Assembly: GCA_020639315.1 (NCBI GenBank)
Contig: JACKGM010000001.1
Coordinates: 225,878-289,877 of the forward strand
DNA length: 64,000 bases
Source: Candidatus Nomurabacteria bacterium
Lineage (GTDB): Bacteria > Patescibacteriota > Saccharimonadia > JAGOAT01
Direction: 5' to 3'
Under the pieces are notes generated by a model that searched no databases, was not told where the DNA came from, and was given only the letters and a program-made list of their open reading frames with translations. The position numbers and the translations under genes were made by a program. Positions 8,913 to 33,326 of this stretch are shown one piece after another. Positions within the stretch are counted from its first letter, which is position 1; each line of letters opens with the position of its first letter.

Positions 8913-8918
8913 GTTATT

Positions 8919-8952: not shown

Positions 8953-8991
8953 ATTAGTTAAGCTTAAGGCAGATAGAATAGAGCTGGAGGG

Positions 8992-11900
8992 ATGGAAGAA
9001 AATAATAACAATCAAGTAGGAGCAAAAGCTAGAAAGCCAAGATTTACTCATTGGGTTCGTTCGGAGTGGCTGATTGCTGGGCTACTATTTGTGATTGGGT
9101 TGGGACTGTTCGCCTACCAAGGTAACAAACCAGAACAAATTACCGAGCAACCAGAACCAACTACTGTCCTGGAAGAAGGACAAGTCGCTATAGTCGGAGA
9201 CGAAATCCTGACCGAAGAAACCCTAGCAGGTTATGTTGAATACAATCAGATAGATCGAAATCAGGCAATCGATCAATGGGTGGATCTCAAGCGGATGCAA
9301 ATAGCAGCTGAACAGGTTGGGTTGGATCTAGTGACGGGATACACAACCCGAGTCGGGGATTACCCAGGAAGCTTTGATGATCGAGATATCGAGCTAGAAA
9401 ACCAGTTTTACAAAGAGGCATTGAGCGCAGAATTGGCAAGACAGCAAGCCGGTAAGCCAGTTGGTGGGGTAATGGTCTGGAATTTTATCAAATTGGGTAA
9501 TTCTGGTCAGTACGAGGTAGATCAAGAGACCAAAGACTATGCTTTTGCCCAAGCTAAAGACTATAAGTCAAGACTAGAATCGGGCGAAATCAAAATAGTG
9601 GATGCGGTTGCTGAGCAGTCACTTGATCCTAGAGTTAAGTTTCCGACTGTTGGTAGTATATCAGCAAGTTTTGGCTACTACCCAGATCAAGAGCTGGTAG
9701 ATACTCTAAGGTTTAATAGCAAAGAGGTATTTGATACAATTGGCTCTCAAGATATAGCTGGTATTAGTGAGATACTGACCTATTCAACCAGTCAATACCA
9801 AGAGAAGGATGGCAATATTGATGCTGGATATTACTTATACTATCTAGACAAAGCTAACCCAGCTAGACCCCAGATAGAGGAAGAATACAACAAGGCAGAT
9901 CAAGAGATTACAGTAACCATCAAGGATCGTGAGTCCCAAGAGACTGAAGCAGTGTCTTGGATCAGTGCCTTGGCACCAATAGCAGAAGCGGCAGATGCCA
10001 ATGGGATACCAACTCAGCAAGAACTCCATTGGCTTGTTCATTCCAACCCTACAGCTGCAGCTGCAGATTATGGAGTGGATCCAACAGTGTTAAACTTTGC
10101 CTTATATTTTGGGGTAGTGACTCTGGATGGTCAACTATATGATAGCGAGGTTCAATGGAAAATCGAAGGCTATCTTCCAGATCCGGAATATAAATATAAG
10201 GGTACTGATGTTTTAGAATGTCCGGACTGTGATGCTAGAATTTTCGGCGATGCTAGGAGTTTTGTCGCTCCCGACCCAAACAATATGTACCCGCCAGGGT
10301 ATGACCTGGGTCTACCTAGAATTGGTAATTCTGTCTCTACCACTACCTCGGATGGTAATTTTGACCTATTAAGAAATGACGGGTTAGTAATGGACTGCTT
10401 TGGGGCTGTCGCCCAGATCAAGGTGACGGCTACTATCCCAGCTATTGGTAAATCGATCACTACACCAGCTAGTGGTTTTAGAAATATTCTGAATACTACT
10501 ATTACTTATGATCGTTTTGACTTTACTTCTGATCCTGAGCCAGAAGAACCTGAACCAGCCGGGGACGCCGAGGTTGAGATCAAAAAATGGGTAATCAACG
10601 AGACAGAGACACCTGGTCAACCTCAAGATGCCAATACGGCTGATCGGGCAGTCAAGTTTGGTCCTGGTGAGTCTATTACCTATAAAATATCTGTTCAAAA
10701 TATCAGCCAGTATCAGGCAATCAATGTCCGTGTGACTGACAATGATTTGCCTACTCAGTATGCGGATTTTTCAGGCTGGAACGGGACTTGGTATGTCGGC
10801 AATTTGTCCCCAGGTACATATAAGAAGATTGAGATTAAGGGTACAATCAAGACTGAGTTTCAGGACTATGATTATTATACCAATACGGCTAGAGTGGATT
10901 ATCAATACAAGGTGCCTTGTACTGCTCAGGAAAAGTTGATACACGATATACCATATATATTAGCAAGCACATCGCCACCCCCTTGTCCCGATAAAATCCT
11001 ATCAGGTAGCGACGATGACCCAGCCAATATCAAGCCAAAATATGCTGATCTCAAGATCGTCAAGACCACCTATGACACTGACAATCAGACTGCCTATAAG
11101 GGCAAGCCAATCAAGTGGCGGATTAGTGTGACCAATAATGGCCCGGATTCAGCAGTTAGCCTAGTCAACGACCGTGGAGCAATTGTTCAAGACCGAGTAC
11201 CAGTCGAGAGTCTCCAGGGTGAAACAGCAAAATGGTATTGTAATCCCACAAACTATTGTCAACCCAATTCTGGTATAGTTACTAGAGCCAACCCAGTAAT
11301 TAAGACAGAAGTTTTTCTCAAGAATAGCTATGCCACGGTCGATATATTTATAGAGGGGGTAGTCGGTCCATATATCGATGGGGGTAGCAATGTCGAGACT
11401 ATTCCTACTCTTGAGATTTGTAACCCATCCAATGATTTGCTCGAAGTAGTCAGCGATACCTATGTACCATGGGACCCCAATGAAGAAGACAATACCTATG
11501 AACGCTCCTGTGTGCCGGTAGTGGTTTGTTATGACGAGGACGGTAATCAGCTGACCAATTATCCCGGTGTTCCCTTCCCTGATGAATATGTTCATATGGT
11601 CGGTGTGGACAATGAAGGAGATGACCTCTACAATCCAGATAATAGCAACCAAGTCTTTGATCTTAATGGCTATGATATTATCTGCCGATTGCCGGATCCA
11701 CCTCCCAAGGAACCGGGGACTAAGGTTTGTGATGTGATTGGATTTTATGAGGACGAAAAAGGCAACAAGACTGAGATCGAAGTCCATAGGGACTTATTCC
11801 AGGGGAGTGCCGCTGGTGCCGATACCACTGCGGTCGGCCACTATACTTTTGAGATTAGTTGCTATGAGACTACGGAGAGCCCGACTCATTCTAGTATCGA

Positions 11901-12921
11901 GTTTGAAGTCATCCGCCGTCTCTTCGGTCCCTACTTCGCGATCGAAGATGGTTCAGCCACAGTGCTCGGGGAAATAGTCAAAGGTGTCTATCCTGAAGAC
12001 AATGACCTAGACATCACTCGTCATACCCACATCCTGACCGCCACCAATGAAATCTCTTCAATCTTCTGCTCACTAACCGAGATCATGGCAGCCGGAGAGA
12101 GTGTAGACTGTACTAGTCCTAGTGACCTAGCTGGAGCCGGATACCCAATCCGTCTAGACGGAGGTAGCAAGGACAACTTTGTCAATGTACTTGACTCAAT
12201 AGAGAGTCTAATCGCAGAACCAGACTCCTCCCCCTATGAAGTAGTTACTATTAACAACCTAAACCAAATCCCCCTTGACCTCAGTGATGGTAAGAGCCCA
12301 GACTTCGAACCTGATCCCAACTCCACCACTACCCCAGTCCCTTACCCCACCCTCTATGTCTATGATGGAGATCTAGAGATCTCAGCTAGTCAAGCTATGC
12401 ACTACAATGCAGGTCTAGCTACTATCTACGTCAGGGGTAATGTCTACATCAATGGAGACATCATCAGAGATGACAATACAGTGATAGAAGACATAGATGA
12501 GTATCCCAACCTAGGTATTATCTCTACTGGCAATATCTACATCAGACCAGACACCTCCAAATCAGTAGAGACTCCCCAAGTAATTGACGCCAGTCTCTTC
12601 GCCCAAGGTATGATCGAAACAGCCTACCGTCAAACCACTCAAACCCCAATCCCCGAATACTATACCAACCAACCCCTAATCTTCCATGGTACAGTAGCCT
12701 CCAAGGGAGATGAGAGTGTCCCAGGAGTCAAAGACCCAATCACCAATCAAGTCTATGCCTTCAAACTAAACAGGACCAATGTCTCAGTCACCCTAGGACA
12801 AGACTGTAACAATACTCAAGTCTCTGAATGCTTTGCACCAGACAACTCAATCTTTATTGCTACTCCTCCGGGGTTTGAGGATCGGTTGGGGGAACTAAAT
12901 AGTGATGAGATAGTATATTAG
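8992..12921 (+). CDS. Giant modular surface protein paralog 1 (1309 aa). It has an N-terminal TM anchor, DUF11-like 'conserved repeat domain' modules, and the shared ~330-aa C-terminal beta-helix-like domain.
   Basis: ATG with GGAGGG RBS. TM helix WLIAGLLFVIGLGLFAY. DUF11-like motifs VKFGPGESITYKISVQNISQYQAINVRVTDNDLP and GKPIKWRISVTNNGPDSAVSLVND. The 3' ~1 kb is near-identical to three downstream genes. Confidence 0.85.
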   Translation: MEENNNNQVGAKARKPRFTHWVRSEWLIAGLLFVIGLGLFAYQGNKPEQITEQPEPTTVLEEGQVAIVGDEILTEETLAGYVEYNQIDRNQAIDQWVDLKRMQIAAEQVGLDLVTGYTTRVGDYPGSFDDRDIELENQFYKEALSAELARQQAGKPVGGVMVWNFIKLGNSGQYEVDQETKDYAFAQAKDYKSRLESGEIKIVDAVAEQSLDPRVKFPTVGSISASFGYYPDQELVDTLRFNSKEVFDTIGSQDIAGISEILTYSTSQYQEKDGNIDAGYYLYYLDKANPARPQIEEEYNKADQEITVTIKDRESQETEAVSWISALAPIAEAADANGIPTQQELHWLVHSNPTAAAADYGVDPTVLNFALYFGVVTLDGQLYDSEVQWKIEGYLPDPEYKYKGTDVLECPDCDARIFGDARSFVAPDPNNMYPPGYDLGLPRIGNSVSTTTSDGNFDLLRNDGLVMDCFGAVAQIKVTATIPAIGKSITTPASGFRNILNTTITYDRFDFTSDPEPEEPEPAGDAEVEIKKWVINETETPGQPQDANTADRAVKFGPGESITYKISVQNISQYQAINVRVTDNDLPTQYADFSGWNGTWYVGNLSPGTYKKIEIKGTIKTEFQDYDYYTNTARVDYQYKVPCTAQEKLIHDIPYILASTSPPPCPDKILSGSDDDPANIKPKYADLKIVKTTYDTDNQTAYKGKPIKWRISVTNNGPDSAVSLVNDRGAIVQDRVPVESLQGETAKWYCNPTNYCQPNSGIVTRANPVIKTEVFLKNSYATVDIFIEGVVGPYIDGGSNVETIPTLEICNPSNDLLEVVSDTYVPWDPNEEDNTYERSCVPVVVCYDEDGNQLTNYPGVPFPDEYVHMVGVDNEGDDLYNPDNSNQVFDLNGYDIICRLPDPPPKEPGTKVCDVIGFYEDEKGNKTEIEVHRDLFQGSAAGADTTAVGHYTFEISCYETTESPTHSSIEFEVIRRLFGPYFAIEDGSATVLGEIVKGVYPEDNDLDITRHTHILTATNEISSIFCSLTEIMAAGESVDCTSPSDLAGAGYPIRLDGGSKDNFVNVLDSIESLIAEPDSSPYEVVTINNLNQIPLDLSDGKSPDFEPDPNSTTTPVPYPTLYVYDGDLEISASQAMHYNAGLATIYVRGNVYINGDIIRDDNTVIEDIDEYPNLGIISTGNIYIRPDTSKSVETPQVIDASLFAQGMIETAYRQTTQTPIPEYYTNQPLIFHGTVASKGDESVPGVKDPITNQVYAFKLNRTNVSVTLGQDCNNTQVSECFAPDNSIFIATPPGFEDRLGELNSDEIVY
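11896..12892. repeat. Copy 1 of the ~1-kb near-identical 3' coding tract (EVIRRLFGPYFAIEDG...ATPPGFEDR) shared by four giant genes.
   Basis: Nucleotide strings are identical to 17118-18107, 24165-25152 and 32325-33315, apart from a handful of SNPs. Confidence 0.9.
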
Positions 12922-12982
12922 TATTGCTTATGGTAATATAAGGATATACTATATAGAAATGAATAGTTAAGGATGGAGGGAA

Positions 12983-15900
12983 ATGGACAAAGGTAATCGA
13001 CACGGTCATCATCGCAGTTTACTTGGATTGTTTGCTGGCAGTATGATGCTATTGCTACTTGCAGGAGTCTTCTTGATTGGCATTAGAATGCAACAAAACC
13101 AGTTGCCAGGAGGGATTGTCGCTCAGGTCGGTGACCAGAAGCTAGGTGAAGAGCAGTACAATGATTTGGTCAATGCTGGTCAAAATTATGGTAATGATGC
13201 CGAGACAGTCAAACAATCCTGGGAGGAGCTGAAGCGAATCGAGATTGCCAATAAGGAGATTGGTCTAGAAATACCAGACGAAAGTCTCAATCGACTGAGA
13301 GACGGGTTTGACCAGACCAACCTTGATACCAATATTGTTCTTCAAAAAAATCTTTACAAGGAGGCAACCGAGCTAGAGCTCAAACGCAAGTCGGAAGGAG
13401 AGTTTACGGGGGGAGTATTAGTCTTTGATGCTTTAGCTTTCACTGGAGACAGGATGGTGAGTGATCCAGATAAGTTAGCGGAGGCCAAGGCTTATGCCGA
13501 GGAAGTTCACCAGAAATTGGTCGATGGTACTTGGGATTTCGATCAGGCATATAGTGATCTAGTCGATGGGATTAAATTCAATTTCCCATCCTCACCGAAT
13601 AATAGTATTAAATTTTCCAAGGATAGTAGCTATACAGATTTAGAACAGGTTTATTATTATCAAGATCAAATTGTTGATTATCTCAAGCAGGGAAAAGAAG
13701 GGCTATCGGGTGTAATGGAGTATAAGTCTAATAATATCAACTCTGATGATACGGGAGAAGATACAACAGTAGGTTATTTTATAGCAGTAGTTGACAGTCA
13801 TACTTCCGCTCAATCAGATATTCAATCAAAGTACAATCAGCAGATTAGTTCTTTGACCCCTAATAATTACCTTGCCAAAATATTAAATTGGCTAGGTCAG
13901 TCAGCTGATGCCAATGTGATAACATATAATAACAGTTTATCTGGGGATAAACATAATATTAAAGGTGCCAACGACTTATTCGGTAATCTGGCAGGCAAAT
14001 ATAGAAACTTAAACGGGACTACATATAGCGGTCCAGTATTATGGACTGTTTCTTTGACTAAACAATCATCTCAGTTTTGGGATGCTAATACATCAAATGG
14101 TTTGAGGGGAAGTTTTAATCATAATGGCAAGGTCAACATGTTTAACTACAACAATGGATTGGTCAAAAGTGTCTTTGTTGATGTAAACAAATATAATTAC
14201 AAAGGTCTTACAATACCAACTACAAGTAATATATTTGATGAAGCAAGTGGATTTAACAATCCGGATTATTGTCAAGGAGTTTGCCCTTACTTGCCACCAG
14301 TAAATGCTGATAGTGCTGGGGCACCAAATAGCCTGGTCCTATTAACAAAGACTGGTGATATGAATATGTATCGTGATTTTGGTATTCGTTACCATTGTAA
14401 TGGGGGACAGACTAAGTTTATTGTGACTGCTAGGCCTGCTACTCCACAGAATATAGTTGCCAGTACGGTTGATGGAGGGAAAGTATTGGGTTTAACCGAT
14501 CATCTAATATCAAGGGTTTATGCAGAGGAAGCTGGATCTGGTGCAAGTGTAGGTGCCACTACTGACGCTGGAGTAGATGTAGTGTCAGGAGCAAACCAAC
14601 CTGGGCATCAGGGTGGTGGTAATCCCCCTACAGGTGAAGTAGCAGAGCCAAAACCTGGGCAAGAACCTCCCGAAGTTCCAGAGCCTGAAAACCCACTTCC
14701 ACCAGTTGAGCCACCAGTAATCAAGATGATCAAAGAAGTCAGAAACGCTAGTATTGAGGGCAGTGAATTCGTCGATGCCAATTTCGAGACATTGGAAGAA
14801 GCTAAGGCCAATGCTGAATCGGTCAGATTCCATCCCGGGGATACTATAGAGTACAAAATCACTGTCAACAATGAAGGTCCTGGTTTTGCTAGAGAAGTCA
14901 CAGTGACCGATGATGATTTGGCAGATTTTGCCGATTGGAATGAATTTGACGGGTATTTAGGGGATTTAGCAGAAGGGGAATCGAAAGAACTATTAATTAC
15001 TGGTAGGATTAAGTCAGATTATGATTTTAGTCAGGCTGCTGATTTGTACCAAAAGAATATCGCTAATACTACTTGCAAATATGATGGGCTAGCTGACAGC
15101 GTCAAGATTTTAGCCAATAGTGATTTAATATCCCAACTAACTAGTCAATTTGGAGTTGCACAAAATCAGATCGATGATTATTTAAATGAGAACGGATTAA
15201 CTGATAAGGTTAGTGGTGACCAGGACTGTCAGCCAGTCTCCGACCCAGCTCATATTTCACCAAAAGTAGTCGACCTCACCATACTCAAACAAGTAGCAAA
15301 CCTCACCGAAACCCCATTCCTCTCCCCAGGCACAAGTCCCTACTACCTCAGTGATGGTCCTATCTACTATGATGCAGATAGTATAGACAATGCAGTCTCC
15401 TTCGGTCCTAGTGAAGAGATAGAGTACCGTATAGAGATAATAAACAACGGTCCAGACGAAGCCACCTCTATCAGCTTCACTGATCCTGATCTCCCAGATG
15501 AGCTAGTAGACTGGGAGTCAGACGGCTGGATCAACGCTGAGACTGGTGAAACCGTATCCTCAGGAGATACCATCTTCCCAATCCCAGCCGAAGGAGCTCC
15601 GACTGAATTCCTCTGGCCTGAAGAGTCCAAGACGATTGATCCTGAGACCAAAGCAGAAACCACAGTCAACAATATCACTGAAGGTAAGAGAGTCAGAATA
15701 GTCCTAACCAAGAAAGGTAGAATCAAGAACGACCTAGCTAATACCGATTGGTTCCAGTCTAATACTGCTCACCAAAACACTGCAGAAGTCTCTACTATCA
15801 ATCCAGAAACCAACTATGACAACAATACCAACGATGCCTACATCGACCCCAAGGTCACAGACATCATCATCGGTAAAGTCGGTCAGACTGGTAATGACAC

Positions 15901-18136
15901 TGGTCTAGCAGGTAAAGAACTAACTTGGACGATTAGAGTAGTCAACAATGGCAAAGACTCAGCTATCTCTCTCGTAGACAATGGAGGAATCAAGCTAATC
16001 GACTACCTCAACCTCAAAGACACCTACAATGAAACAGTTACCTATCAATGTGTCCCTGCCTATGCCTGCAGTGTCCCAACCGGAGAAATCAACTCCACTG
16101 ACAATCCCGAAGGTATCCTAGACCTAGAACTCTACCTCGGCCCTGGCTTTGGAGACACCGAGCAAGTAGACTTCATCGATATCCTCTCAGATGAGGAGCT
16201 GTCAGCCAACCAAACCGACACTACCACCAACAACACCACCACCAACACTGACACCACCCAAACCACCAATACTGATCTAACCACCCTCCCCGTCTGTGAG
16301 ACTGGTAGATTCATCGGTATTAACAAGGCTACTGACACTACTACAGGCTTCAACCCCGATATCAACGAGGATGGCAATGGAGACCTCTATGTTCTCTTCA
16401 ATACCAATTGCTTTAGCTCCTACCCTGACCTCAGCCACTTCGAGCTAACAGACCTCTCCCTTAGCAGTGATGAAGTAGTCAACTACCTCACCCAGTATCA
16501 AGGTGGTAAAATTGCTTACTATCAAACCCCTACTCACCTAAACACCACCAATCAAGTAGACATCCAAATCACCGCTAGACTAGCTGACCATGTCACCTAT
16601 GGTGATGATGTCACTACTCAAGCAGTAGATGAGATCTGTAATCCTAGTGACAAGAACAACCCTGATCAAAAAGTCCATGTCGAAAAGACCGAAACCGTAG
16701 CCTGGGAATTGTCACTAGACAATAACACCGCTCCCCTAAGATGTATCCCAGTAATGCTCTGTTACAACGAAGATGGTCAAGCCTTAGCTAGCTATCCCGG
16801 TAAAGAAGGAGAAGACTTCTATCTCTCATTCGTCGGAGTAGACAATGAAGGTAACAAACTCTATGATCAATCTCTAGATGAACTAATCGCTAGAGATGAC
16901 TTAGCAGGACTAGATGTGATCTGTCGTAAGCCTACTACCTGTGAGCTTAAAGTAACGCGGACGATAGTACTAGCCAATGGTACAGAAGAAACCACTGATG
17001 TCGAAGTCACCGAACTATTTGATGGCTCAGCTGCTGGTGCTGATACCACTGACCTCGGATACTACAACTTTAGCCTAGAGTGTCAAAACCTCGAAGACGG
17101 ACAATCCCCCAACCTCACGATTGAAGTCATCCGCCGTCTCTTCGGTCCCTACTTCGCGATCGAAGATGGTTCAGCCACAGTGCTCGGGGAAATAGTCAAA
17201 GGTGTCTATCCTGAAGACAATGACCTAGACATCACTCGTCATACCCACATCCTGACCGCTACCAATGAAATCTCTTCAATCTTCTGCTCACTAACCGAGA
17301 TCATGGCAGCCGGAGAGAGTGTAGACTGTACTAGTCCTAGTGACCTAGCTGGAGCCGGATACCCAATCCGTCTAGACGGAGGTAGCAAGGACAACTTTGT
17401 CAATGTACTTGACTCAATAGAGAGTCTAATCGCAGAACCAGACTCCTCCCCCTATGAAGTAGTTACTATTAACAACCTAAACCAAATCCCCCTTGACCTC
17501 AGTGATGGTAAGAGCCCAGACTTCGAACCTGATCCCAACTCCACCACTACCCCAGTCCCTTACCCCACCCTCTATGTCTATGATGGAGATCTAGAGATCT
17601 CAGCTAGTCAAGCTATGCACTACAATGCAGGTCTAGCTACTATCTACGTCAGGGGTAATGTCTACATCAATGGAGACATCATCAGAGATGACAATACAGT
17701 GATAGAAGACATAGATGAGTATCCCAACCTAGGTATTATCTCTACTGGCAATATCTACATCAGACCAGACACCTCCAAATCAGTAGAGACTCCCCAAGTA
17801 ATTGACGCCAGTCTCTTCGCCCAAGGTATGATCGAAACAGCCTACCGTCAAACCACTCAAACCCCAATCCCCGAATACTATACCAACCAACCCCTAATCT
17901 TCCATGGTACAGTAGCCTCCAAGGGAGATGAGAGTGTCCCAGGAGTCAAAGACCCAATCACCAATCAAGTCTATGCCTTCAAACTAAACAGGACCAATGT
18001 CTCAGTCACCCTAGGACAAGACTGTAACAATACTCAAGTCTCTGAATGCTTTGCACCAGACAACTCAATCTTTATTGCTACTCCTCCGGGGTTTGAGGAT
18101 CGGTTGGGGGAGACTAATGGAGGGCTTAGCTACTAA
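12983..18136 (+). CDS. Giant modular surface protein paralog 2 (1717 aa). It has an N-terminal TM anchor, DUF11-like modules, a Thr/Asn-rich linker and the shared C-terminal domain.
   Basis: ATG with GGAGGG RBS. TM LLGLFAGSMMLLLLAGVFLIGI. DUF11-like motifs VRFHPGDTIEYKITVNNEGPGFAREVTVTDDDL and VSFGPSEEIEYRIEIINNGPDEATSISFTDPDLP. The last 2.9 kb is identical to tracts in the genes ending at 25163 and 33326. Confidence 0.85.
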   Translation: MDKGNRHGHHRSLLGLFAGSMMLLLLAGVFLIGIRMQQNQLPGGIVAQVGDQKLGEEQYNDLVNAGQNYGNDAETVKQSWEELKRIEIANKEIGLEIPDESLNRLRDGFDQTNLDTNIVLQKNLYKEATELELKRKSEGEFTGGVLVFDALAFTGDRMVSDPDKLAEAKAYAEEVHQKLVDGTWDFDQAYSDLVDGIKFNFPSSPNNSIKFSKDSSYTDLEQVYYYQDQIVDYLKQGKEGLSGVMEYKSNNINSDDTGEDTTVGYFIAVVDSHTSAQSDIQSKYNQQISSLTPNNYLAKILNWLGQSADANVITYNNSLSGDKHNIKGANDLFGNLAGKYRNLNGTTYSGPVLWTVSLTKQSSQFWDANTSNGLRGSFNHNGKVNMFNYNNGLVKSVFVDVNKYNYKGLTIPTTSNIFDEASGFNNPDYCQGVCPYLPPVNADSAGAPNSLVLLTKTGDMNMYRDFGIRYHCNGGQTKFIVTARPATPQNIVASTVDGGKVLGLTDHLISRVYAEEAGSGASVGATTDAGVDVVSGANQPGHQGGGNPPTGEVAEPKPGQEPPEVPEPENPLPPVEPPVIKMIKEVRNASIEGSEFVDANFETLEEAKANAESVRFHPGDTIEYKITVNNEGPGFAREVTVTDDDLADFADWNEFDGYLGDLAEGESKELLITGRIKSDYDFSQAADLYQKNIANTTCKYDGLADSVKILANSDLISQLTSQFGVAQNQIDDYLNENGLTDKVSGDQDCQPVSDPAHISPKVVDLTILKQVANLTETPFLSPGTSPYYLSDGPIYYDADSIDNAVSFGPSEEIEYRIEIINNGPDEATSISFTDPDLPDELVDWESDGWINAETGETVSSGDTIFPIPAEGAPTEFLWPEESKTIDPETKAETTVNNITEGKRVRIVLTKKGRIKNDLANTDWFQSNTAHQNTAEVSTINPETNYDNNTNDAYIDPKVTDIIIGKVGQTGNDTGLAGKELTWTIRVVNNGKDSAISLVDNGGIKLIDYLNLKDTYNETVTYQCVPAYACSVPTGEINSTDNPEGILDLELYLGPGFGDTEQVDFIDILSDEELSANQTDTTTNNTTTNTDTTQTTNTDLTTLPVCETGRFIGINKATDTTTGFNPDINEDGNGDLYVLFNTNCFSSYPDLSHFELTDLSLSSDEVVNYLTQYQGGKIAYYQTPTHLNTTNQVDIQITARLADHVTYGDDVTTQAVDEICNPSDKNNPDQKVHVEKTETVAWELSLDNNTAPLRCIPVMLCYNEDGQALASYPGKEGEDFYLSFVGVDNEGNKLYDQSLDELIARDDLAGLDVICRKPTTCELKVTRTIVLANGTEETTDVEVTELFDGSAAGADTTDLGYYNFSLECQNLEDGQSPNLTIEVIRRLFGPYFAIEDGSATVLGEIVKGVYPEDNDLDITRHTHILTATNEISSIFCSLTEIMAAGESVDCTSPSDLAGAGYPIRLDGGSKDNFVNVLDSIESLIAEPDSSPYEVVTINNLNQIPLDLSDGKSPDFEPDPNSTTTPVPYPTLYVYDGDLEISASQAMHYNAGLATIYVRGNVYINGDIIRDDNTVIEDIDEYPNLGIISTGNIYIRPDTSKSVETPQVIDASLFAQGMIETAYRQTTQTPIPEYYTNQPLIFHGTVASKGDESVPGVKDPITNQVYAFKLNRTNVSVTLGQDCNNTQVSECFAPDNSIFIATPPGFEDRLGETNGGLSY
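15265..18107. repeat. Copy 1 of the ~2.9-kb near-identical coding module (two DUF11-like domains, TN-rich linker, beta-rich domain and C-terminal domain).
   Basis: Matches 22215-25152 and 30385-33315 base for base, except for an in-frame ~81-nt shorter (ACC/AAC)-rich linker at about 16200-16265. Confidence 0.9.
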
Positions 18137-18150
18137 TATCTAGGTAAATA

Positions 18151-25163: not shown

Positions 25164-25185
25164 TTTTCTGGAATCAGGCTAATGA

Positions 25186-25250: not shown

Positions 25251-25277
25251 TGCCAAGACTATGGCGGTTGTGGTTAA

Positions 25278-28200
25278 ATGAAAAAGAGAAGTTTATATAA
25301 ACCAAATAAAAGTGAGGGAAAGTTGAGTAATACAAAGTTTAATTTGAGGCATTTACTACTAAGTCTAAGTGGTGTCTTGGTAGTCGTGGCTATCAGCATT
25401 GGGATAGTCAAATTCATCGACTATAGCAATCCCGTGGTCGTCAGTATTGACGGAGTCGAGATCCGAGAAAACACCTTTGACAAAAATATCGAGCTAGGTA
25501 AAGACTACGACAATGGTAGAGAAGACATAGTCAATGCCACAATCGACCTCGAAGCTTGGAAGAAAATCAACCAAAACCTCGGAGTTGTCCCTCCCGACTC
25601 CTTTATCATGGAGTATGCTAGTCGATATACCGAGCAGGCAGTCAAAGAAAACGTAATCCTCCAAAAGAACCTCTACAAATACGCCACCGAGCAAATGATG
25701 CTCAATCAATACTACGGGCTCTATGATGGCGCAGTATTTGTCTTCCCATATGCCAATTTTGATCAGGGAGCTACAACGGAAGAGCAAGCCTACGCCAAGC
25801 AAAAAGCTGAGGAGTACCTAGCGAGATTTTCTAGTGGCGAAGATCCCAGATCACTAATCGACGAGATCTATGCAGATAGGAGCCTAGAGCCAGCCGTCGA
25901 TGCCCAAAATCCATCGACAATCCTCGGATTTTACGAAGATCAGAGCCCCTATGATCAATACAGGATGGGCTACTCAGAGCTACTCAATGATATTTGGTCG
26001 ATCGAGAATCGTGGTACTAGTCAGATAGTCGATATCCCTGAAGATAGAGAAAATCGTTCTGGTGGATACTACTATTTCTACAATATCAATGATTATCAGT
26101 CTCCGAGGCTAGATATCCAAGAGAGCTATGATACAGAAGTCGAGAGAATAGCTACAGACTTGACTACCCAAGCAGACAAGATCAATCGAGTCGGTCAGAG
26201 TACGGTATCCTTCCTCGGTAATAAACTCAAGGATTTAGCAATCCAGCCAGCTTACGCCAAGGATACTGTCGAGGCTCATCAGTCTGGGCCAAGTGTGCTA
26301 TTAAAGCTGATGAACGATAAGAGCTATGAGGGTAGGACACTGATCGAGCGGTTCGCTGATGTCTCTGGTAGGGTATTGGGTAGCAATGGAGATCCTTACC
26401 CCAATGCTATCGTCAGGATTAAATACAAAGATGTGCTTAAGCAAAATTGTGCAGAGTGTGATAGTGCCTTTGTCGATGTCGGTAAGATTGGTTTGGGTTC
26501 ATCTACCAATGAAAACGCTCCTCGAGTAGACTACCGCAAGGCAGGTATAGGTAAGCTCCATGATACTCCTGAGATGCAGGGTTATCACGACTATGTCGAG
26601 GTGATTTCAGGGGAGAGTGGGTATTTCTCTCTATCTGCTATTGACATAGTGTTTGACTGTAATCGCGTCAAGACAGAGTACGGAGATGGTCATCCAATAG
26701 ATGTCAATATGGAAGCCTTGGATGTCTATAAAGATGCAGAGATATCACTGGGAGGGCTAGATAGTATCAACGATCAGATAGCGATAGTCGATACTGAGCA
26801 AGTAGGGGGTAATATCGACCTTGCTTTCGCCAAGCCAGAGCATGATAGTGGATACTTGGATCGACTAGCCAGCACAGTCGGAAGTATCTTCCAGCTCGCC
26901 CGGATACCTTTAGTCCAAGGGGCGCAAGGGGGTTATGGGGAGTTAAAACCCGATGAGAATAATCAACTTGTGGACCTAGAGGATAAGAGATTCGGCCATT
27001 ATAGGGATAAGATTCAATATTTTAGAGAGAAAAGTGAGATGAATCTTGACTCTAATTTCGCAGCTGAACAATATAATTCCTATGATCCAGCTGGAAACAT
27101 AGATAAAGAGACAATGGCTTCAATTTTACTTGATACAGTAAACGGATATCTTACAGACCCGGATTTCCAGATTAATAAAGATCAGGCGCAGGGTTTAGTA
27201 GGTCTTTTATTTGCATGTGATGTTATTTATCAGGAGGGGGATAATGAAAACTATTGGTACTATGCCAATCTTATAGACAGTGATGGTAATCATCCACTGG
27301 ACTGCATGTCGCATTTTGTAGTCGAGGATGTCTTGATGGCAATTGGGATGGACCTAAGGGTAGATAATGTCTATACCAACCCTACCTTCCCCCATGCTTT
27401 CCAGGTTGATTTTCGGGAACCCCCTGAGAATTGGCCTAATGATCGGGAAGGAACAGGATCAGCAAAGGATGGGTTTGTAGTATTTTGCGAGGCAACAGGT
27501 TACAAAACAAACGATGCTAGGGATAGGTGTATACTGGATAAGTCTGATACAGAGCAAGCAACCGACGAATCAGACGACGATAACTTTGCTGAACCTAACA
27601 AACTTGCAAGGCAATGTAGCTATTTTCTTTGGGAGTTAGACCAAGCAAGGTACGAAGCGCTAGAAGGTAGAGATTGTACGAGCCTTGTGGATAAGGGAGA
27701 AGTAGGTTCTCTTAATGGAATATCAAGACGGACATTATGTGTTGATCGTTGGGGGTATACGTTTGGTAGCAACCAATGTGTCCCACCTGATGGTGTAACA
27801 TACCCTTCTAGGCGGGAAAGTTTTTGTAAAAATATAACAAATTTCATATTTAGTAATAATAGATGCAATATGTCAGGATACGAGCAAGGCGCAAGTCTGG
27901 AGCTAGCAGAAGAGTATAAAAATGCAGTATTTGGAGATGCAGTTAATGCTTCTCCGGCTCAACTTTGCTCCGACTTTTACGTAGCATTAGAGATTATGCC
28001 ACCTGGGACATATAATAGTTATGAAATGCTTAGTCAATATGGGCTGACGAATGGGAAGTATGTCTGTGATCCTAACAATTATGAGTTTAACTCTGAGACA
28101 GAGAAATATCAACTTAAAGAGAGAGGCTCTTCCTCTGACAATGAGTCTCCTAACGACGGTGTTAGCCCTGAGGTAGGCTCTACTACAGAAGACCGCCGTT

Positions 28201-31200
28201 CTTCTCTTTGTTCACAGTATTTTATCGATAAGTTGGCAGGGAAGGACTTAGATGGGTACAATGACCTAGAGTGTAACTTGAAGGAGGCTTACGATAGCTC
28301 AGATGGTGGTGACGGTCTTTCGGTAAAAGAAACATGTGTATTAATCAATCTAACTTTAAATTCTACAATAAATGATGACGGTACAACCTGTAGTAATATT
28401 GGTACAACTGGAGCTAAGATATGTACTGGCTTGGGGGCTACCACATCAGACGATACTTGCGATATGGAAAAAATAAAGAGTATTAGTGACATCGAGAGAG
28501 GAAAGCTGTTTTTTTCAGCCTATTACGCTACGCTAGAAGACGATGAACGTAAGGAAGATTATATATGTATCGGTAAATATCGTCAGCTATATACTATGCC
28601 TCACGATAACTTAGAAGCAAGCGACTTTAATGCAATAGATTGTGTAGTCCCAGAGGACGGTGGTAATTCACAAGATAGTAATATTGAAACCCCACTGGTC
28701 TCCCCAAATGATAGTTTTACCGAGACAGAGGGAGATGACGGAGTCAAGTCAATTAAGTTGGCTGAAGGATTAGATGATTACCAATCTTATTGTGAACAGG
28801 GTCTGGAGGGAACCTATCTAGATACAGATACTGACGATGACAAGCCTGGGGTTTGTAATGGTATAGATTCTACAAAAATCGATCAGCAATTCTGTACTGC
28901 AGCCGGGGGGACAGTACTCACAGACGAAACCAACACCGAGACTGATAGTGAAGATGAGGATAGTAATGCAGAAGGCACCAATACTACTTGGATCGATAGG
29001 GTGATCGATAGGGTGTTTGCCGCTTCTGATGAAGAAGATGACGATAACTCTACAGGTAGTGGTGATACTACGGCTGAGACCTACGGCTGTGACTTTAGTG
29101 AGGCGGGAGATTTTGACAAAGATAAGATCGAGGCGGCTTTGACCGAGCTGGCTAATACCCCTACAACCCCCGCCAACCCAAACAGCTCCGCAGGTGGTAG
29201 CAATAGCTCCGCCAATGCCGGCGGTGCCCCCAACGGTGTTGCTATTAGTACTGCTACAGGTAAGCCATGTAACCAAAATGAAATAAGACTCAAGAGCAAT
29301 GGCTGTGGACAGAGACAAACACTGGCGACGAGACAACCCAACCAAATAAGGACAAACGGCAATTCCCCTACTCCCCAAACTCCACCACCAGGAGGAGGTA
29401 CTACTACAGGTGAGCCTCCTCAGGCTCCTGATGATGGCCTAGATCCCCCCGAGGGGCCCGATGTCCCTGATCAGCCCGATGACCTTCCAGAGAGACCTGT
29501 AGTCTCGATCAAAAAATACGTCGGTCACACAGTAGATGATCTCAGTGATGCCCAAGACTCAGCTACAGCTGTCAAGTTCTATCCTGGTCAATCGATAGTC
29601 TATCAAGTAGTAATTACTCATCAGTCTGGAGCAGATGCGACCAAAGTAGTCTGGTCTGACGAAAACCTTGATGGATTTGTCTCAGGTGGACTGATGGAAC
29701 TAGGAGATTGGACTAGTGATACTCAAGTAGATGACATCTTCTCATTCCCTCTCAAACAAGGAGAAGAGATCACCTTCTTAAGAGAAGGCACAATCTCCCT
29801 AGATGCTGGTCTCTTCGGTCTAGACCAAGAATCAGTTCTTAACTCAACTGCTGCCCTTGAAAACATCGCCAGTGTCGATGAACTCAATGATGCTGATCCT
29901 GGGATTGCTAGTGGTGATCCTGCTAATATCTTGCCGACGATAGCCGAAGTCAAGCTCGATAAGCTAGTCAGCAATATTAGTGACAATATCTTGGATCAGC
30001 CAGCCGATGACTTAGAACATACTGTCTTTTTCGGTCCTGGAGAAGAAATCGAATACAAAATGGTCATCACCAACGAGGGTCCAGACGGAGCAGTCGGTCT
30101 GATTTGGGCTGATGATAGTCTGCCGACTTTTGCTACCTTTGAAGGCTGGAAGCTTGAGGATGGCTCAGATGCTCCCGAGATGCTATTTGACCCTTCAGTA
30201 TCAGAAGATACACTAGAGTCAGGAGAATCAATTACCCTGATCAACCGTGGTCGGATCAATCCTGATGCTGGAGACTTCGGAGTCGGTACTAGCCTAGACC
30301 CCCGGGGTGGCTATGAGAATATAGCCTCAGTCGATCCTCTGACCCACGATAGCAACCTAGAAAACAATACCAACCCAGCCTGGATCTCCCCCAAGCTAGT
30401 CGACCTCACCATCAAAAAACAAGTCTCCAACCTCACCGAAACCCCATTCCTCTCCCCAGGCACAAGTCCCTACTACCTCAGTGATGGTCCTATCTACTAT
30501 GATGCAGATAGTATAGACAATGCAGTCTCCTTCGGTCCTAGTGAAGAGATAGAGTACCGTATAGAGATAATAAACAACGGTCCAGACGAAGCCACCTCTA
30601 TCAGCTTCACTGATCCTGATCTCCCAGATGAGCTAGTAGACTGGGAGTCAGACGGCTGGATCAACGCTGAGACTGGTGAAACCGTATCCTCAGGAGATAC
30701 CATCTTCCCAATCCCAGCCGAAGGAGCTCCGACTGAATTCCTCTGGCCTGAAGAGTCCAAGACGATTGATCCTGAGACCAAAGCAGAAACCACAGTCAAC
30801 AATATCACTGAAGGTAAGAGAGTCAGAATAGTCCTAACCAAGAAAGGTAGAATCAAGAACGACCTAGCTAATACCGATTGGTTCCAGTCTAATACTGCTC
30901 ACCAAAACACTGCAGAAGTCTCTACTATCAATCCAGAAACCAACTATGACAACAATACCAACGATGCCTACATCGACCCCAAGGTCACAGACATCATCAT
31001 CGGTAAAGTCGGTCAGACTGGTAATGACACTGGTCTAGCAGGTAAAGAACTAACTTGGACGATTAGAGTAGTCAACAATGGTAAAGACTCAGCTATCTCT
31101 CTCGTAGACAATGGAGGAATCAAGCTAACCGACTACCTCAACCTCAAAGACACCTACAATGAAACAGTTACCTATCAATGTGTCCCTGCCTATGCCTGCA

Positions 31201-33326
31201 GTGTCCCAACCGGAGAAATCAACTCCACTGACAATCCCGAAGGTATCCTAGACCTAGAACTCTACCTCGGCCCTGGCTTTGGAGACATGGAGCAAGTAGA
31301 CTTCATCGATATCCTCTCAGATGAGGAGCTGTCAGCCAACCAAACCGACACTACCAACAACAACACCACCACCAACAACAACACTAACACCACTAACACC
31401 AATAACACCAACACCACCACCAACACTAACACTACCAACAACACTACCAACAACACTGACACCACCCAAACCACCAATACTGATCTAACCACCCTCCCCG
31501 TCTGTGAGACTGGTAGATTCATCGGTATTAACAAGGCTACTGACACTACTACAGGCTTCAACCCCGATATCAACGAGGATGGCAATGGAGACCTCTATGT
31601 TCTCTTCAATACCAATTGCTTTAGCTCCTACCCTGACCTCAGCCACTTCGAGCTAACAGACCTCTCCCTTAGCAGTGATGAAGTAGTCAACTACCTCACC
31701 CAGTATCAAGGTGGTAAAATTGCTTACTATCAAACCCCTACTCACCTAAACACCACCAATCAAGTAGACATCCAAATCACCGCTAGACTAGCTGACCATG
31801 TCACCTATGGTGATGATGTCACTACTCAAGCAGTAGATGAGATCTGTAATCCTAGTGACAAGAACAACCCTGATCAAAAAGTCCATGTCGAAAAGACCGA
31901 AACCGTAGCCTGGGAATTGTCACTAGACAATAACACCGCTCCCCTAAGATGTATCCCAGTAATGCTCTGTTACAACGAAGATGGTCAAGCCTTAGCTAGC
32001 TATCCCGGTAAAGAAGGAGAAGACTTCTATCTCTCATTCGTCGGAGTAGACAATGAAGGTAACAAACTCTATGATCAATCTCTAGATGAACTAATCGCTA
32101 GAGATGACTTAGCAGGACTAGATGTGATCTGTCGTAAGCCTACTACCTGTGAGCTTAAAGTAACGCGGACGATAGTACTAGCCAATGGTACAGAAGAAAC
32201 CACTGATGTCGAAGTCACCGAACTATTTGATGGCTCAGCTGCTGGTGCTGATACCACTGACCTCGGATACTACAACTTTAGCCTAGAGTGTCAAAACCTC
32301 GAAGACGGACAATCCCCCAACCTCACGATTGAAGTCATCCGCCGTCTCTTCGGTCCCTACTTCGCGATCGAAGATGGTTCAGCCACAGTGCTCGGAGAAA
32401 TAGTCAAAGGTGTCTATCCTGAAGACAATGACCTAGACATCACTCGTCATACCCACATCCTGACCGCTACCAATGAAATCTCTTCAATCTTCTGCTCACT
32501 AACCGAGATCATGGCAGCCGGAGAGAGTGTAGACTGTACTAGTCCTAGTGACCTAGCTGGAGCCGGATACCCAATCCGTCTAGACGGAGGTAGCAAGGAC
32601 AACTTTGTCAATGTACTTGACTCAATAGAGAGTCTAATCGCAGAACCAGACTCCTCCCCCTATGAAGTAGTTACTATTAACAACCTAAACCAAATCCCCC
32701 TTGACCTCAGTGATGGTAAGAGCCCAGACTTCGAACCTGATCCCAACTCCACCACTACCCCAGTCCCTTACCCCACCCTCTATGTCTATGATGGAGATCT
32801 AGAGATCTCAGCTAGTCAAGCTATGCACTACAATGCAGGTCTAGCTACTATCTACGTCAGGGGTAATGTCTACATCAATGGAGACATCATCAGAGATGAC
32901 AATACAGTGATAGAAGACATAGATGAGTATCCCAACCTAGGTATTATCTCTACTGGCAATATCTACATCAGACCAGACACCTCCAAATCAGTAGAGACTC
33001 CCCAAGTAATTGACGCCAGTCTCTTCGCCCAAGGTATGATCGAAACAGCCTACCGTCAAACCACTCAAACCCCAATCCCCGAATACTATACCAACCAACC
33101 CCTAATCTTCCATGGTACAGTAGCCTCCAAGGGAGATGAGAGTGTCCCAGGAGTCAAAGACCCAATCACCAATCAAGTCTATGCCTTCAAACTAAACAGG
33201 ACCAATGTCTCAGTCACCCTAGGACAAGACTGTAACAATACCCAAGTCTCTGAATGTTTTGCACCGGACAACTCAATCTTTATCGCTACTCCTCCGGGGT
33301 TTGAGGATCGGCTTAGCTCGGAGTGA
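25278..33326 (+). CDS. Giant modular surface protein paralog 4 (2682 aa). Its N-terminal anchor and ~500-aa module are homologous to the M15-peptidase protein. It also has a long acidic Cys-rich region, module A, an extra DUF11-like module, the 2.9-kb shared module and the shared C-terminal domain.
   Basis: ATG at 25278. TM LLLSLSGVLVVVAISIGIV. DUF11-like motifs VKFYPGQSIVYQVVITHQSGADATKVVWSDENL and VFFGPGEEIEYKMVITNEGPDGAVGLIWADDSLP. Identical tracts as described above. Confidence 0.85.
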   Translation: MKKRSLYKPNKSEGKLSNTKFNLRHLLLSLSGVLVVVAISIGIVKFIDYSNPVVVSIDGVEIRENTFDKNIELGKDYDNGREDIVNATIDLEAWKKINQNLGVVPPDSFIMEYASRYTEQAVKENVILQKNLYKYATEQMMLNQYYGLYDGAVFVFPYANFDQGATTEEQAYAKQKAEEYLARFSSGEDPRSLIDEIYADRSLEPAVDAQNPSTILGFYEDQSPYDQYRMGYSELLNDIWSIENRGTSQIVDIPEDRENRSGGYYYFYNINDYQSPRLDIQESYDTEVERIATDLTTQADKINRVGQSTVSFLGNKLKDLAIQPAYAKDTVEAHQSGPSVLLKLMNDKSYEGRTLIERFADVSGRVLGSNGDPYPNAIVRIKYKDVLKQNCAECDSAFVDVGKIGLGSSTNENAPRVDYRKAGIGKLHDTPEMQGYHDYVEVISGESGYFSLSAIDIVFDCNRVKTEYGDGHPIDVNMEALDVYKDAEISLGGLDSINDQIAIVDTEQVGGNIDLAFAKPEHDSGYLDRLASTVGSIFQLARIPLVQGAQGGYGELKPDENNQLVDLEDKRFGHYRDKIQYFREKSEMNLDSNFAAEQYNSYDPAGNIDKETMASILLDTVNGYLTDPDFQINKDQAQGLVGLLFACDVIYQEGDNENYWYYANLIDSDGNHPLDCMSHFVVEDVLMAIGMDLRVDNVYTNPTFPHAFQVDFREPPENWPNDREGTGSAKDGFVVFCEATGYKTNDARDRCILDKSDTEQATDESDDDNFAEPNKLARQCSYFLWELDQARYEALEGRDCTSLVDKGEVGSLNGISRRTLCVDRWGYTFGSNQCVPPDGVTYPSRRESFCKNITNFIFSNNRCNMSGYEQGASLELAEEYKNAVFGDAVNASPAQLCSDFYVALEIMPPGTYNSYEMLSQYGLTNGKYVCDPNNYEFNSETEKYQLKERGSSSDNESPNDGVSPEVGSTTEDRRSSLCSQYFIDKLAGKDLDGYNDLECNLKEAYDSSDGGDGLSVKETCVLINLTLNSTINDDGTTCSNIGTTGAKICTGLGATTSDDTCDMEKIKSISDIERGKLFFSAYYATLEDDERKEDYICIGKYRQLYTMPHDNLEASDFNAIDCVVPEDGGNSQDSNIETPLVSPNDSFTETEGDDGVKSIKLAEGLDDYQSYCEQGLEGTYLDTDTDDDKPGVCNGIDSTKIDQQFCTAAGGTVLTDETNTETDSEDEDSNAEGTNTTWIDRVIDRVFAASDEEDDDNSTGSGDTTAETYGCDFSEAGDFDKDKIEAALTELANTPTTPANPNSSAGGSNSSANAGGAPNGVAISTATGKPCNQNEIRLKSNGCGQRQTLATRQPNQIRTNGNSPTPQTPPPGGGTTTGEPPQAPDDGLDPPEGPDVPDQPDDLPERPVVSIKKYVGHTVDDLSDAQDSATAVKFYPGQSIVYQVVITHQSGADATKVVWSDENLDGFVSGGLMELGDWTSDTQVDDIFSFPLKQGEEITFLREGTISLDAGLFGLDQESVLNSTAALENIASVDELNDADPGIASGDPANILPTIAEVKLDKLVSNISDNILDQPADDLEHTVFFGPGEEIEYKMVITNEGPDGAVGLIWADDSLPTFATFEGWKLEDGSDAPEMLFDPSVSEDTLESGESITLINRGRINPDAGDFGVGTSLDPRGGYENIASVDPLTHDSNLENNTNPAWISPKLVDLTIKKQVSNLTETPFLSPGTSPYYLSDGPIYYDADSIDNAVSFGPSEEIEYRIEIINNGPDEATSISFTDPDLPDELVDWESDGWINAETGETVSSGDTIFPIPAEGAPTEFLWPEESKTIDPETKAETTVNNITEGKRVRIVLTKKGRIKNDLANTDWFQSNTAHQNTAEVSTINPETNYDNNTNDAYIDPKVTDIIIGKVGQTGNDTGLAGKELTWTIRVVNNGKDSAISLVDNGGIKLTDYLNLKDTYNETVTYQCVPAYACSVPTGEINSTDNPEGILDLELYLGPGFGDMEQVDFIDILSDEELSANQTDTTNNNTTTNNNTNTTNTNNTNTTTNTNTTNNTTNNTDTTQTTNTDLTTLPVCETGRFIGINKATDTTTGFNPDINEDGNGDLYVLFNTNCFSSYPDLSHFELTDLSLSSDEVVNYLTQYQGGKIAYYQTPTHLNTTNQVDIQITARLADHVTYGDDVTTQAVDEICNPSDKNNPDQKVHVEKTETVAWELSLDNNTAPLRCIPVMLCYNEDGQALASYPGKEGEDFYLSFVGVDNEGNKLYDQSLDELIARDDLAGLDVICRKPTTCELKVTRTIVLANGTEETTDVEVTELFDGSAAGADTTDLGYYNFSLECQNLEDGQSPNLTIEVIRRLFGPYFAIEDGSATVLGEIVKGVYPEDNDLDITRHTHILTATNEISSIFCSLTEIMAAGESVDCTSPSDLAGAGYPIRLDGGSKDNFVNVLDSIESLIAEPDSSPYEVVTINNLNQIPLDLSDGKSPDFEPDPNSTTTPVPYPTLYVYDGDLEISASQAMHYNAGLATIYVRGNVYINGDIIRDDNTVIEDIDEYPNLGIISTGNIYIRPDTSKSVETPQVIDASLFAQGMIETAYRQTTQTPIPEYYTNQPLIFHGTVASKGDESVPGVKDPITNQVYAFKLNRTNVSVTLGQDCNNTQVSECFAPDNSIFIATPPGFEDRLSSE
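30385..33315. repeat. Copy 3 of the ~2.9-kb near-identical coding module. It carries the expanded TN linker at about 31340-31470.
   Basis: Direct comparison. A few SNPs near the end (e.g. aatacccaagtctctgaatgttttgcaccggac vs aatactcaagtctctgaatgctttgcaccagac). Confidence 0.9.

Follow-up and report, generated by a model that had tools for sequence, protein, structure and literature searches.

Recent gene conversion and selection appear to keep one C-terminal domain identical in four giant adhesin-like genes of a Saccharibacteria chromosome

We analysed a window of 64,000 nt from contig JACKGM010000001.1 of the Candidatus Nomurabacteria bacterium assembly GCA_020639315.1, in which four giant genes on the + strand (g1 to g4) encode exported, adhesin-like proteins. 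The four genes have in common a 983-nt 3' tract, whose copies are 99.4-99.8% identical in pairwise blastn comparisons. We call the C-terminal domain that it encodes the tail. The pattern of substitutions inside and outside this tract indicates that recent gene conversion and purifying selection together keep the tail identical, and we regard this evolutionary part of our explanation, exchange between paralogs under constraint, as very likely. The C-terminal half of the tail is related to an exported protein family whose gene lies upstream of pilM in Saccharibacteria pilus operons. The best overall explanation, which we hold to be somewhat more probable than not, is a converted, identical C-terminal head on variable stalks, acting with pili. 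The functional step within it, a common extracellular head used in host contact alongside pili, is considerably more tentative.

The ORFs (open reading frames) of the four giant genes are present on the + strand as a preliminary description of this DNA had reported. Contrary to its further claim, they are not strictly consecutive: two other genes separate g2 from g3. The four-gene cluster, which is probably one transcription unit, is laid out as follows.

8992-12921, + strand: g1, surface-protein gene (1309 aa).
12983-18136, + strand: g2, paralog of g1 (1717 aa).
18151-19980, + strand: gene for a VanY-like D-Ala-D-Ala carboxypeptidase, inside the cluster between g2 and g3.
19925-20857, + strand: 310-aa ORF that follows the VanY-like gene and precedes g3; its product has one hydrophobic segment.
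20847-25163, + strand: g3, paralog (1438 aa counted from the ATG).
25278-33326, + strand: g4, paralog (2682 aa, of which the first ~1400 are unique to g4).

The start of g3 was taken to be the ATG at 20847; the mechanical ORF begins upstream, at TTG 20748. A Pfam scan gave no family match for the 310-aa ORF. The four copies of the tail tract, and the region that precedes it in g1, were located as follows.

11903-12885, + strand: tail tract of g1 (327 aa, EVIRRLFGPYF through FEDRL).
17121-18103, + strand: tail tract of g2, placed by pairwise alignment.
24166-25148, + strand: tail tract of g3, placed by pairwise alignment.
32329-33311, + strand: tail tract of g4, with four private synonymous single-nucleotide polymorphisms (SNPs) at 33242-33284.
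11325-11902, + strand: pre-tail of g1, homologous to the pre-tails of g2-g4 and near saturation at synonymous sites.

Only six columns of the tract vary (offsets 67, 139, 913, 928, 937, and 955), all of them synonymous third positions, and the 327 residues are identical in g1-g4. Assuming that about one in four random substitutions is synonymous, a set of six that are all synonymous would arise by chance about 2 times in 10,000, which argues for purifying selection on all copies. The SNP pattern is mosaic: offset 67 splits g1 and g2 from g3 and g4, while offset 139 isolates g1. All four SNPs private to g4 fall in one 43-nt stretch close to where the tail ends on its 3' side, and this cluster looks like a short patch that was left unconverted or was converted separately. 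Beyond the tract, the genes differ again in the 3-10 codons that remain before the stop (GELNSDEIVY, GETNGGLSY, SSE, and SSE in g1-g4). At the other end, identity to g1 in 30-nt windows is ~30-77% as far as 11897 and reaches 100% from 11927 onward. The edge lies seven residues ahead of PYF, the motif with which the tail domain begins in related proteins, so that the identity tract coincides with one protein domain, a point that the preliminary description missed.

Upstream of this edge the picture is different. Over the 181 residues before the tail, g1 and its paralogs are 40% identical in amino acids, and the nucleotide identity of the g1 and g2 pre-tails is 47.7%. At four-fold degenerate sites, g1 and a paralog are 51% identical in the pre-tail and 99.4% in the tail, where 28% would be expected at random. 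The divergence of the g1 pre-tail is therefore old, in contrast with the tail. Selection on the protein cannot equalise synonymous sites, but recent exchange of DNA can, and the contrast indicates that the tail was homogenised in this way. The main claims of the preliminary description on this point thus hold. It had described a near-identical tract of about 1 kb in all four genes (our edges lie within 7 nt of its own), divergence just before the stop, homology of the proteins upstream of the tract, a sharp boundary in place of a smooth decay, and recent gene conversion rather than old duplication; synonymous sites are indeed homogenised inside the tract. The tail tract was also considered as a mobile element, and this was rejected: it has no terminal inverted repeats at its ends and no ORF on the opposite strand.

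Longer shared blocks exist among three of the four genes. They start at a DUF11 domain boundary and run into the tail.

15264-17120, + strand: extended near-identical block in g2.
22239-24165, + strand: extended near-identical block in g3.
30393-32328, + strand: extended near-identical block in g4.

Together with the tails, these blocks cover ~2.9 kb and are 98.7-99.6% identical. The genes g3 and g4 share even more (2925 + 430 nt, the 430-nt part being 21796-22225 in g3 and 29503-29932 in g4), and g4 is near-identical to g3 from 29503 except for one extra DUF11 unit of ~470 nt. Consequently, the view that the regions upstream of the tract are unrelated, or only distantly related, fails for g2, g3, and g4, which are near-identical over ~2.9-3.4 kb. 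The edges of the blocks fall on the first residues of DUF11 domains; exchanged blocks bounded in this way by domains make g1-g4 mosaics of modules. Within the blocks, a Thr/Asn-rich low-complexity tract with a 9-nt (ACCACCAAC-like) period was observed at 23155-23360 in g3 and at 31318-31523 in g4, and a tract of the same type, 78 nt shorter, at about 16206-16345 in g2. It is likely a slippage hotspot that alters stalk length in frame.

The organism is a member of the candidate phyla radiation (CPR), a Candidatus Saccharibacteria, and the cluster sits in its chromosome. The CPR affiliation that had been proposed agrees with a syntenic contig, ~80% identical, that is annotated Candidatus Saccharibacteria. 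This contig belongs to a related metagenome-assembled genome (MAG), GCA_017983775.1 (protein MBP6005667.1), for whose accession we found no mention in the literature. It is syntenic with window positions 1-12029 and ends 127 nt inside the tail, which suggests a true multi-copy repeat in that genome too, since short-read assemblers break on such repeats. The relative and the window are 92.1% identical over these 127 nt of tail and 78.3% identical over the 570 nt upstream. Tails within the genome (99.4-99.9%) are thus more alike than tails between genomes (92.1% over only 127 nt), which is the pattern of concerted evolution.

These data also bear on the possibility that the identity arose in a few very recent one-off events, segmental duplications producing g2, g3, and g4 and one domain swap into g1. 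The nested blocks (3.4 kb in g3/g4, 2.9 kb in g2, and 1.0 kb in g1) are what successive duplications would give, and the copies are separated by only 10-26 differences. However, the old pre-tail of g1 means that the g1 tail was replaced, which is itself conversion; the sharing of SNPs is mosaic (offset 67, offset 139, and the 43-nt cluster of g4); the assembly of the relative breaks at the same point, suggesting a multi-copy tail there as well; and the tail of the relative is 8% diverged from those of the window, which differ among themselves by no more than 0.6%. We therefore consider this scenario rather improbable.

An assembly or polishing artefact, in which tails were collapsed, chimeric, or artificially homogenised and the true copies were fewer or more divergent, is very unlikely. 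Repeats of 1-3 kb at 99.4-99.9% identity are beyond short-read resolution, they can be homogenised by short-read polishing, and independent short-read contigs of the same population are either fragmentary or hybrid. One of them, a Logan contig (L062), is a 903-nt fragment. Another (L001; JGI 3300009772, Ga0116162_10111745), of 1234 nt, is an exact hybrid of g1 and g4: its first 170 nt equal the g1 pre-tail (11733-11902), and the remainder, equal to window 32329-33392, carries the g4-private tail SNPs and the flank that follows g4. Two origins are conceivable for it: a chimera of the de Bruijn graph, or true recombination between g1 and g4 with deletion of ~21 kb. For the combinatorial repertoire suggested in the preliminary description, this possible chimera is the sole sign of exchange. 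Short contigs of these two kinds are also what a true repeat would be expected to yield. Nevertheless, each copy of the tail in the window is in frame, has unique flanks on both sides, and has private or shared SNPs of its own. Elsewhere on this contig, five perfect tandem repeats of 831 nt have been resolved, which suggests that long reads lie behind the assembly. Moreover, a different genome breaks exactly at the tail, as it would at a true repeat, and polishing cannot produce the fall to about 40% identity outside the tract. In practice, short-read MAGs will break or become chimeric right at these genes.

Long direct repeats in the same orientation within a surface-protein cluster also recall programmed antigenic or phase variation of the pilE/pilS or vlsE type, in which the constant 3' tract would be the handle for recombination. 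The window contains recA, ruvA, and ruvB, and L001 could be a real recombinant of this kind. On the other hand, silent-cassette systems combine an expression site with truncated, promoterless donors, whereas g1-g4 are all full-length, complete ORFs with their own starts and export signals, and no truncated silent cassette accompanies them. No site-specific recombinase or invertible element was detected in Pfam scans of the neighbouring ORFs, and the tract ends lack inverted repeats. Finally, homology flanks the variable part on one side only, so a cassette replacement would delete the intervening genes. Programmed variation is accordingly hardly more probable than the artefact.

The proteins themselves were then compared. 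Each of g1-g4 has a single N-terminal hydrophobic segment (residues 22-45 in g1) and none elsewhere, including the C-terminus. In g1, g2, and g4 this segment is a signal-anchor, followed by an N-domain of ~270 residues that is common to all three and to the VanY-like protein. In the VanY-like protein, homology to these N-domains extends over the hydrophobic segment and the next 270-450 residues (E values to 1.5e-30 with g4), and the enzyme thus shares a membrane-proximal module with the adhesin-like proteins. The shared N-domain has no family match; its reading as a SurA/PpiD-like chaperone domain was dropped, being unsupported by Pfam (E up to 10) and by a PDB profile search. The N-terminus of g3 is signal-peptide-like (MKSRLLIFGILIVGVFGLMQMVRPSLAG), and the shared N-domain is absent from it. 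An N-terminal transmembrane anchor, as had been described for the whole family, therefore fits g1, g2, and g4, while g3 looks like a protein with a cleavable signal peptide. The description of all four as surface proteins agrees with their exported look, with one N-terminal hydrophobic segment each, and with their stalk domains. DUF11 (PF01345) was found in all four proteins (49.4, 46.7, 26.9, and 41.5 bits in g1-g4, against a Pfam cut-off of 24.6), and TIGR01451 also matches the stalks of g1-g4. The best of these domains in g1, which has equivalents in g2, g3, and g4, is the following.

10657-10899, + strand: best DUF11/CLIPPER domain of g1 (aa 556-636, 49.4 bits).

In Pfam and NCBIfam, DUF11 is the sole recognised domain of g1-g4, and no known adhesive or sorting/anchor domain was found. 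Judged by this architecture, the four look like giant exported proteins of the fibrillar-adhesin type.

The tail sequence matched nothing in Pfam, NCBIfam, or PDB, even at E values up to 10, and metagenome scans with the tail protein and a 23-nt word of tail DNA gave no matches. A word-indexed search with the tail alone returned a single match, a fragment from the same organism. An exhaustive HMMER scan of 1.84 billion proteins gave five tail matches in total, two of which were same-lineage fragments or orthologs. The motif block ATIYVxGDVYIxG ... IPxLxIIxTGxIYI of the tail recurs in two proteins, P0004 (phmmer E 3.2e-6) and P0006. Iterating from them led to a family of exported proteins of 350-720 residues, to which one half of the tail is related, a link that the preliminary description had likewise missed.

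12415-12873, + strand: C-terminal half of the g1 tail, the part with homology to the pilus-operon family of Saccharibacteria.

The motifs of this half are ATIYVRGNVYINGDI, YPNLGIISTGNIYIRPD, PLIFHGTV, LNRTN, and SECFAPDNSIF. With hhalign, the family alignment, whose conserved core runs from beta-rung motifs to AExFNYxPExW, matched the tail at a probability of 89.7% (E 1.8e-6, tail residues 178-330), and a hidden Markov model (HMM) of the family built without the window sequences recovered the window tails at E values of about 1e-10 (34-36 bits, over a 58-aa core only). The C-terminal half of the tail is thus a diverged copy of the family domain. The first ~175 residues of the tail were not aligned to the family by hhalign or the HMM and share only the PYF start; the two nearly invariant Cys columns of the family are not Cys in the window tails; and these end in ATPPGFEDRL plus 3-10 variable residues, C-terminal in all four genes, and not in LPPVL/F. 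DUF7305 (PF23981, gathering score 27 bits), of which no mention was found in the literature, gave no match to the window tail at E values up to 10. It gave sub-threshold matches in 7 of 18 family relatives (best E 8.3e-5; 14.7 bits in P0006). AlphaFold2 models of the tail reached a predicted local distance difference test (pLDDT) score of 33.5 from the single sequence and 43.7 with an 18-sequence alignment, and only around residues 150-225 were beta strands predicted with moderate confidence.

The domain of this family occupies the last ~300 residues, from PYFxVxGGDV through a terminal LPPVL, and is C-terminal in every complete member. The family (members P0011 and P0018-P0029) has no Pfam or NCBIfam model. 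Three members could be located by exact sequence, and all were directly upstream of pilM-pilN-pilO-x-pilB-pilT-pilC-pilin-pilD. A scan of one genome per GTDB species with an alignment of canonical members (A4), which detects canonical-type copies only, found 53 loci, nearly all of them in Saccharibacteria or Saccharimonadales, and their pilus context was investigated by tblastn with pilus proteins. In 43 of the 53, a same-strand pilM begins 52-573 nt further downstream, with a median of 135 nt, and in 6 more it lies 0.7-5.9 kb downstream. Hence 49 of 51 informative loci are upstream of pilM; two loci were too short to judge and two lie elsewhere. At one locus (L014), the family gene is followed by uvrA and not by pilM. 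The family is essentially single-copy, with one genome carrying two copies among the 53 loci. A second copy (L057, 3720-8489, + strand) ends a 1589-aa protein without Pfam domains, in a MAG that also has the canonical copy, and in the fragment P0010 the C-terminal half of the family domain comes after a LamG-type lectin domain (PF13385). Minimal members (P0011, P0019, P0028, and P0029) consist of a signal peptide and the domain only, suggesting that the domain functions alone.

In the cultured oral Southlakia epibionticum, pilM directly follows ychF and the family gene is absent (PMC10633639, Table S1). We found no description of a gene upstream of pilM in the papers on Saccharibacteria pili that we consulted, and its absence from this organism may explain why. 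In the window, pilM, pilN, pilB, pilT, and pilC were not detected by tblastn. Two small adjoining ORFs occur at 56733-57513 (- strand), one of them with a match to the T2SS-G/pseudopilin family (PF08334, E 9.5e-7); pilin-type genes thus exist in the genome even if the assembly genes are not in the window.

Based on these results, we propose the following explanation. Each protein runs from an N-terminal signal-anchor (g1, g2, and g4) or signal peptide (g3) through variable domains to a DUF11/CLIPPER stalk, followed by the conserved pre-tail and the 327-aa C-terminal domain. Recent, probably recurrent homologous recombination between the paralogs homogenises the tails, with purifying selection on top. 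The tail would be a self-sufficient extracellular interaction head, held in g1, g2, and g4, given their N-terminal anchors, at the far end of stalks that differ in length and composition. Given the adhesin-like architecture and the linkage to pilus genes, it would serve the process that the pili also serve, contact with the envelope of the host cell; pili are required for host binding in cultured Saccharibacteria (PMC11623550, PMC10633639). All four proteins would need the same head because they address one shared partner.

Several observations weigh against this explanation. The window has no pilus assembly genes, so the link to pili comes only from homology over half a domain, and neither the N-terminal half of the tail nor the LPPVL ending is conserved between window and family. 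The predicted fold is not confident and hence does not allow a binding site or an enzyme site to be named. If a long-read assembly was polished, this step could make the tails look more alike than they are. The membrane-distal tip for host attachment, which the preliminary description had proposed, follows from topology, and g3 does not seem to fit in the same way: with an apparently cleavable signal peptide and no anchor, it suits a tail that retains the protein at the cell. The C-terminal part of most fibrillar adhesins is the anchor and not the adhesive end, and so is that of the products of the bab and hom genes of Helicobacter pylori, where it is the homogenised part.

A self-docking or anchoring role for the tail is almost as likely as a distal head, and we treat it as a serious possibility, if clearly a less probable one than our explanation as a whole. 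The tail would attach the proteins to the wall or S-layer, to the exit site of the pilus, or to its tip; the variable N-terminal parts would do the binding, much as in PilY1 with its conserved C-terminal domain, and identity would be needed because all four proteins dock to one partner of the cell itself. This would explain why the domain is always at the extreme C-terminus and why the terminal motif LPPVL/F is conserved in the family. It would also suit the recurrence of the C-terminal half behind different N-terminal architectures (LamG in P0010, the 1589-aa protein of L057), the signal-peptide-like start of g3, which has no other retention device, and the position of the family gene next to the machinery genes pilM-pilN-pilO. 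The 3' segments of H. pylori babA/babB and homA/homB under concerted evolution offer a parallel (PMC3960876). Yet a second anchor would be awkward opposite the N-terminal signal-anchors of g1, g2, and g4, proteins of 1300-2700 residues. Furthermore, the window tails lack LPPVL and their last 3-10 residues vary among the paralogs, the family is essentially single-copy per genome and hence no general sorting signal for many cargoes, and the domain-only members would be docks without cargo.

We also considered a more specific proposal, which is rather speculative: the C-terminal half-domain may be a new, Saccharibacteria-specific accessory module of type IV pili that was copied onto four stalk proteins. 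Functionally, it could correspond to PilY1, or to a collar that crosses the wall, in a cell that lacks an outer membrane. If so, the four proteins would be interchangeable pilus-coupled host adhesins in an obligate epibiont, and recombination via the identical tails (compare L001) would add, delete, and reshuffle adhesins and thereby change host range.

Like other CPR bacteria, Saccharibacteria spend their lives attached to bacterial hosts. The few cultured strains depend on type IV pili for this, and the molecules of host recognition are largely unknown. The present results provide two leads. An unannotated exported family heads the pilus operon in most environmental Saccharibacteria and is a candidate pilus component, and four giant adhesin-like proteins with one identical domain are a candidate repertoire for host contact. 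That four copies have been kept identical implies that the domain is functionally important, and the locus offers a natural experiment on whether the tail addresses the host or the cell itself. It further shows cleanly how gene conversion can follow domain borders in a reduced genome, one in which recA, ruvA, and ruvB have been kept. That conversion can make one part of a family of surface-protein genes uniform is already well known. New here are the setting, with conversion tracts that match a domain exactly in four giant tandem genes of a reduced CPR genome, a tail domain without a Pfam or NCBIfam model, and the relationship of this domain to a widespread gene that stands first in the pilus operon of Saccharibacteria and has apparently not been described.

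The cluster is surrounded by ordinary chromosomal genes (miaA, murT/gatD, ftsK, recA, valS, ruvAB, rny, and pseudopilin-like genes), and a scan of the window for known RNA families found a single tRNA and nothing else. A giant ORF at 58-7305 (+ strand) runs off the 5' end of the window. Its tandem repeats, at 688-4842, comprise the five 831-nt (277-aa) units that are 100% identical and a sixth at 68% identity. The Pfam matches of this ORF (DUF903, Chitin_bind_4) are repeat noise, and no stretch passes alone. In the related MAG its ortholog is split into genes of 731 and 777 residues, probably through repeat collapse in the assembly. Other predicted surface or secreted proteins are cadherin-like/Big_9 (51390-52439, - strand), lamin-tail (57863-58810, - strand), and CAP (62174-63292, + strand). 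An intergenic repeat family with a hairpin-forming core GGATCCCCCGTAAG...CTTCGGAGGATGACA (complement TGTCATCCTCCGAA) occurs in both orientations at the following positions.

8075-8913: intergenic repeats, directly upstream of g1.
33665-33975: intergenic repeats, directly downstream of g4.
34780-34878: intergenic repeats.
37650-38050: intergenic repeats.
44714-45074: intergenic repeats.
48012-48297: intergenic repeats.
51149-51322: intergenic repeats.
55514-55930: intergenic repeats.
58879-58991: intergenic repeats.
61687-62093: intergenic repeats.

They partly form tandem arrays with units of 28-29, 49, 127, 152, and 247 nt. They have no Rfam match and may be an element like REP (repetitive extragenic palindromic) sequences or MITEs (miniature inverted-repeat transposable elements), or a terminator.

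Among known systems, the closest in evolutionary pattern are the babA/babB and homA/homB genes of H. pylori, in which RecA-dependent gene conversion homogenises the 3' segment while the 5' and middle parts diverge (PMC3960876). In both cases paralogous adhesin-type genes have diverged 5' and middle parts and a homogenised 3' part (here 99.4-99.9% within and 92% between genomes). The homogenised part of bab and hom is an outer-membrane beta-barrel anchor, whereas here it is a soluble-type domain opposite an N-terminal anchor, in an organism without an outer membrane. In addition, the genes described here are four in tandem and in the same orientation, while the H. pylori loci are dispersed, and chimera formation and expression switching have been shown for bab only.

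In protein architecture, g1-g4 resemble fibrillar adhesins, for which DUF11/CLIPPER is a documented stalk domain (PMC12617251): in both cases a long exported protein carries Ig-like DUF11/CLIPPER domains in tandem along its middle part and differing domains at its two ends. In the fibrillar adhesins described so far, the adhesive domain is usually N-terminal, and the C-terminus holds a domain for sorting or anchoring (such as LPXTG, OmpA-like, or archaeosortase signals). In g1-g4, by contrast, the hydrophobic anchor is N-terminal and the C-terminal domain belongs to an unannotated family. With the family upstream of pilM, the tail shares the core TIYVxGDVYIxGNI, IPSFRLIVxGNIYI, LTVNGS, LLRT, and AExFNY, which aligns with its C-terminal half, as well as PYF soon after the domain boundary, a length of ~300-330 residues, the C-terminal position, and export. 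It differs in that the window copies are four in number, fused to giant stalks, and away from pilus genes, and in that GGDVxAG, WN, GAGxQYAAxAL, LTFAN, GGxFG..C.DY, the cysteine pair, and LPPVL are found in the family only and are absent from the window tails.

The tapirins of Caldicellulosiruptor (10.1101/359786) are similar in working logic only, and shared ancestry is not implied; no similarity was found by sequence, and the PDB profile search was empty at E values up to 10. Within type IV pilus systems the comparison is with the pilus-tip adhesins PilY1/PilC; a PilY1 priming complex is cited in PMC11623550. These adhesins are Sec-exported, non-pilin proteins encoded in pilus gene clusters, with a conserved C-terminal domain and a variable N-terminal part. 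The tail proteins and the family are likewise exported, with a conserved C-terminal domain and a variable N-terminal part, and the family is encoded in the pilus cluster; there is no Pfam match to the PilC/PilY1 family. The conserved domain of PilY1 is, however, a beta-propeller, and its genes lie with those of minor pilins and not upstream of pilM. Tapirins and PilY1, neither of them related by sequence, would be the nearest working analogies for the two functional readings of the tail.

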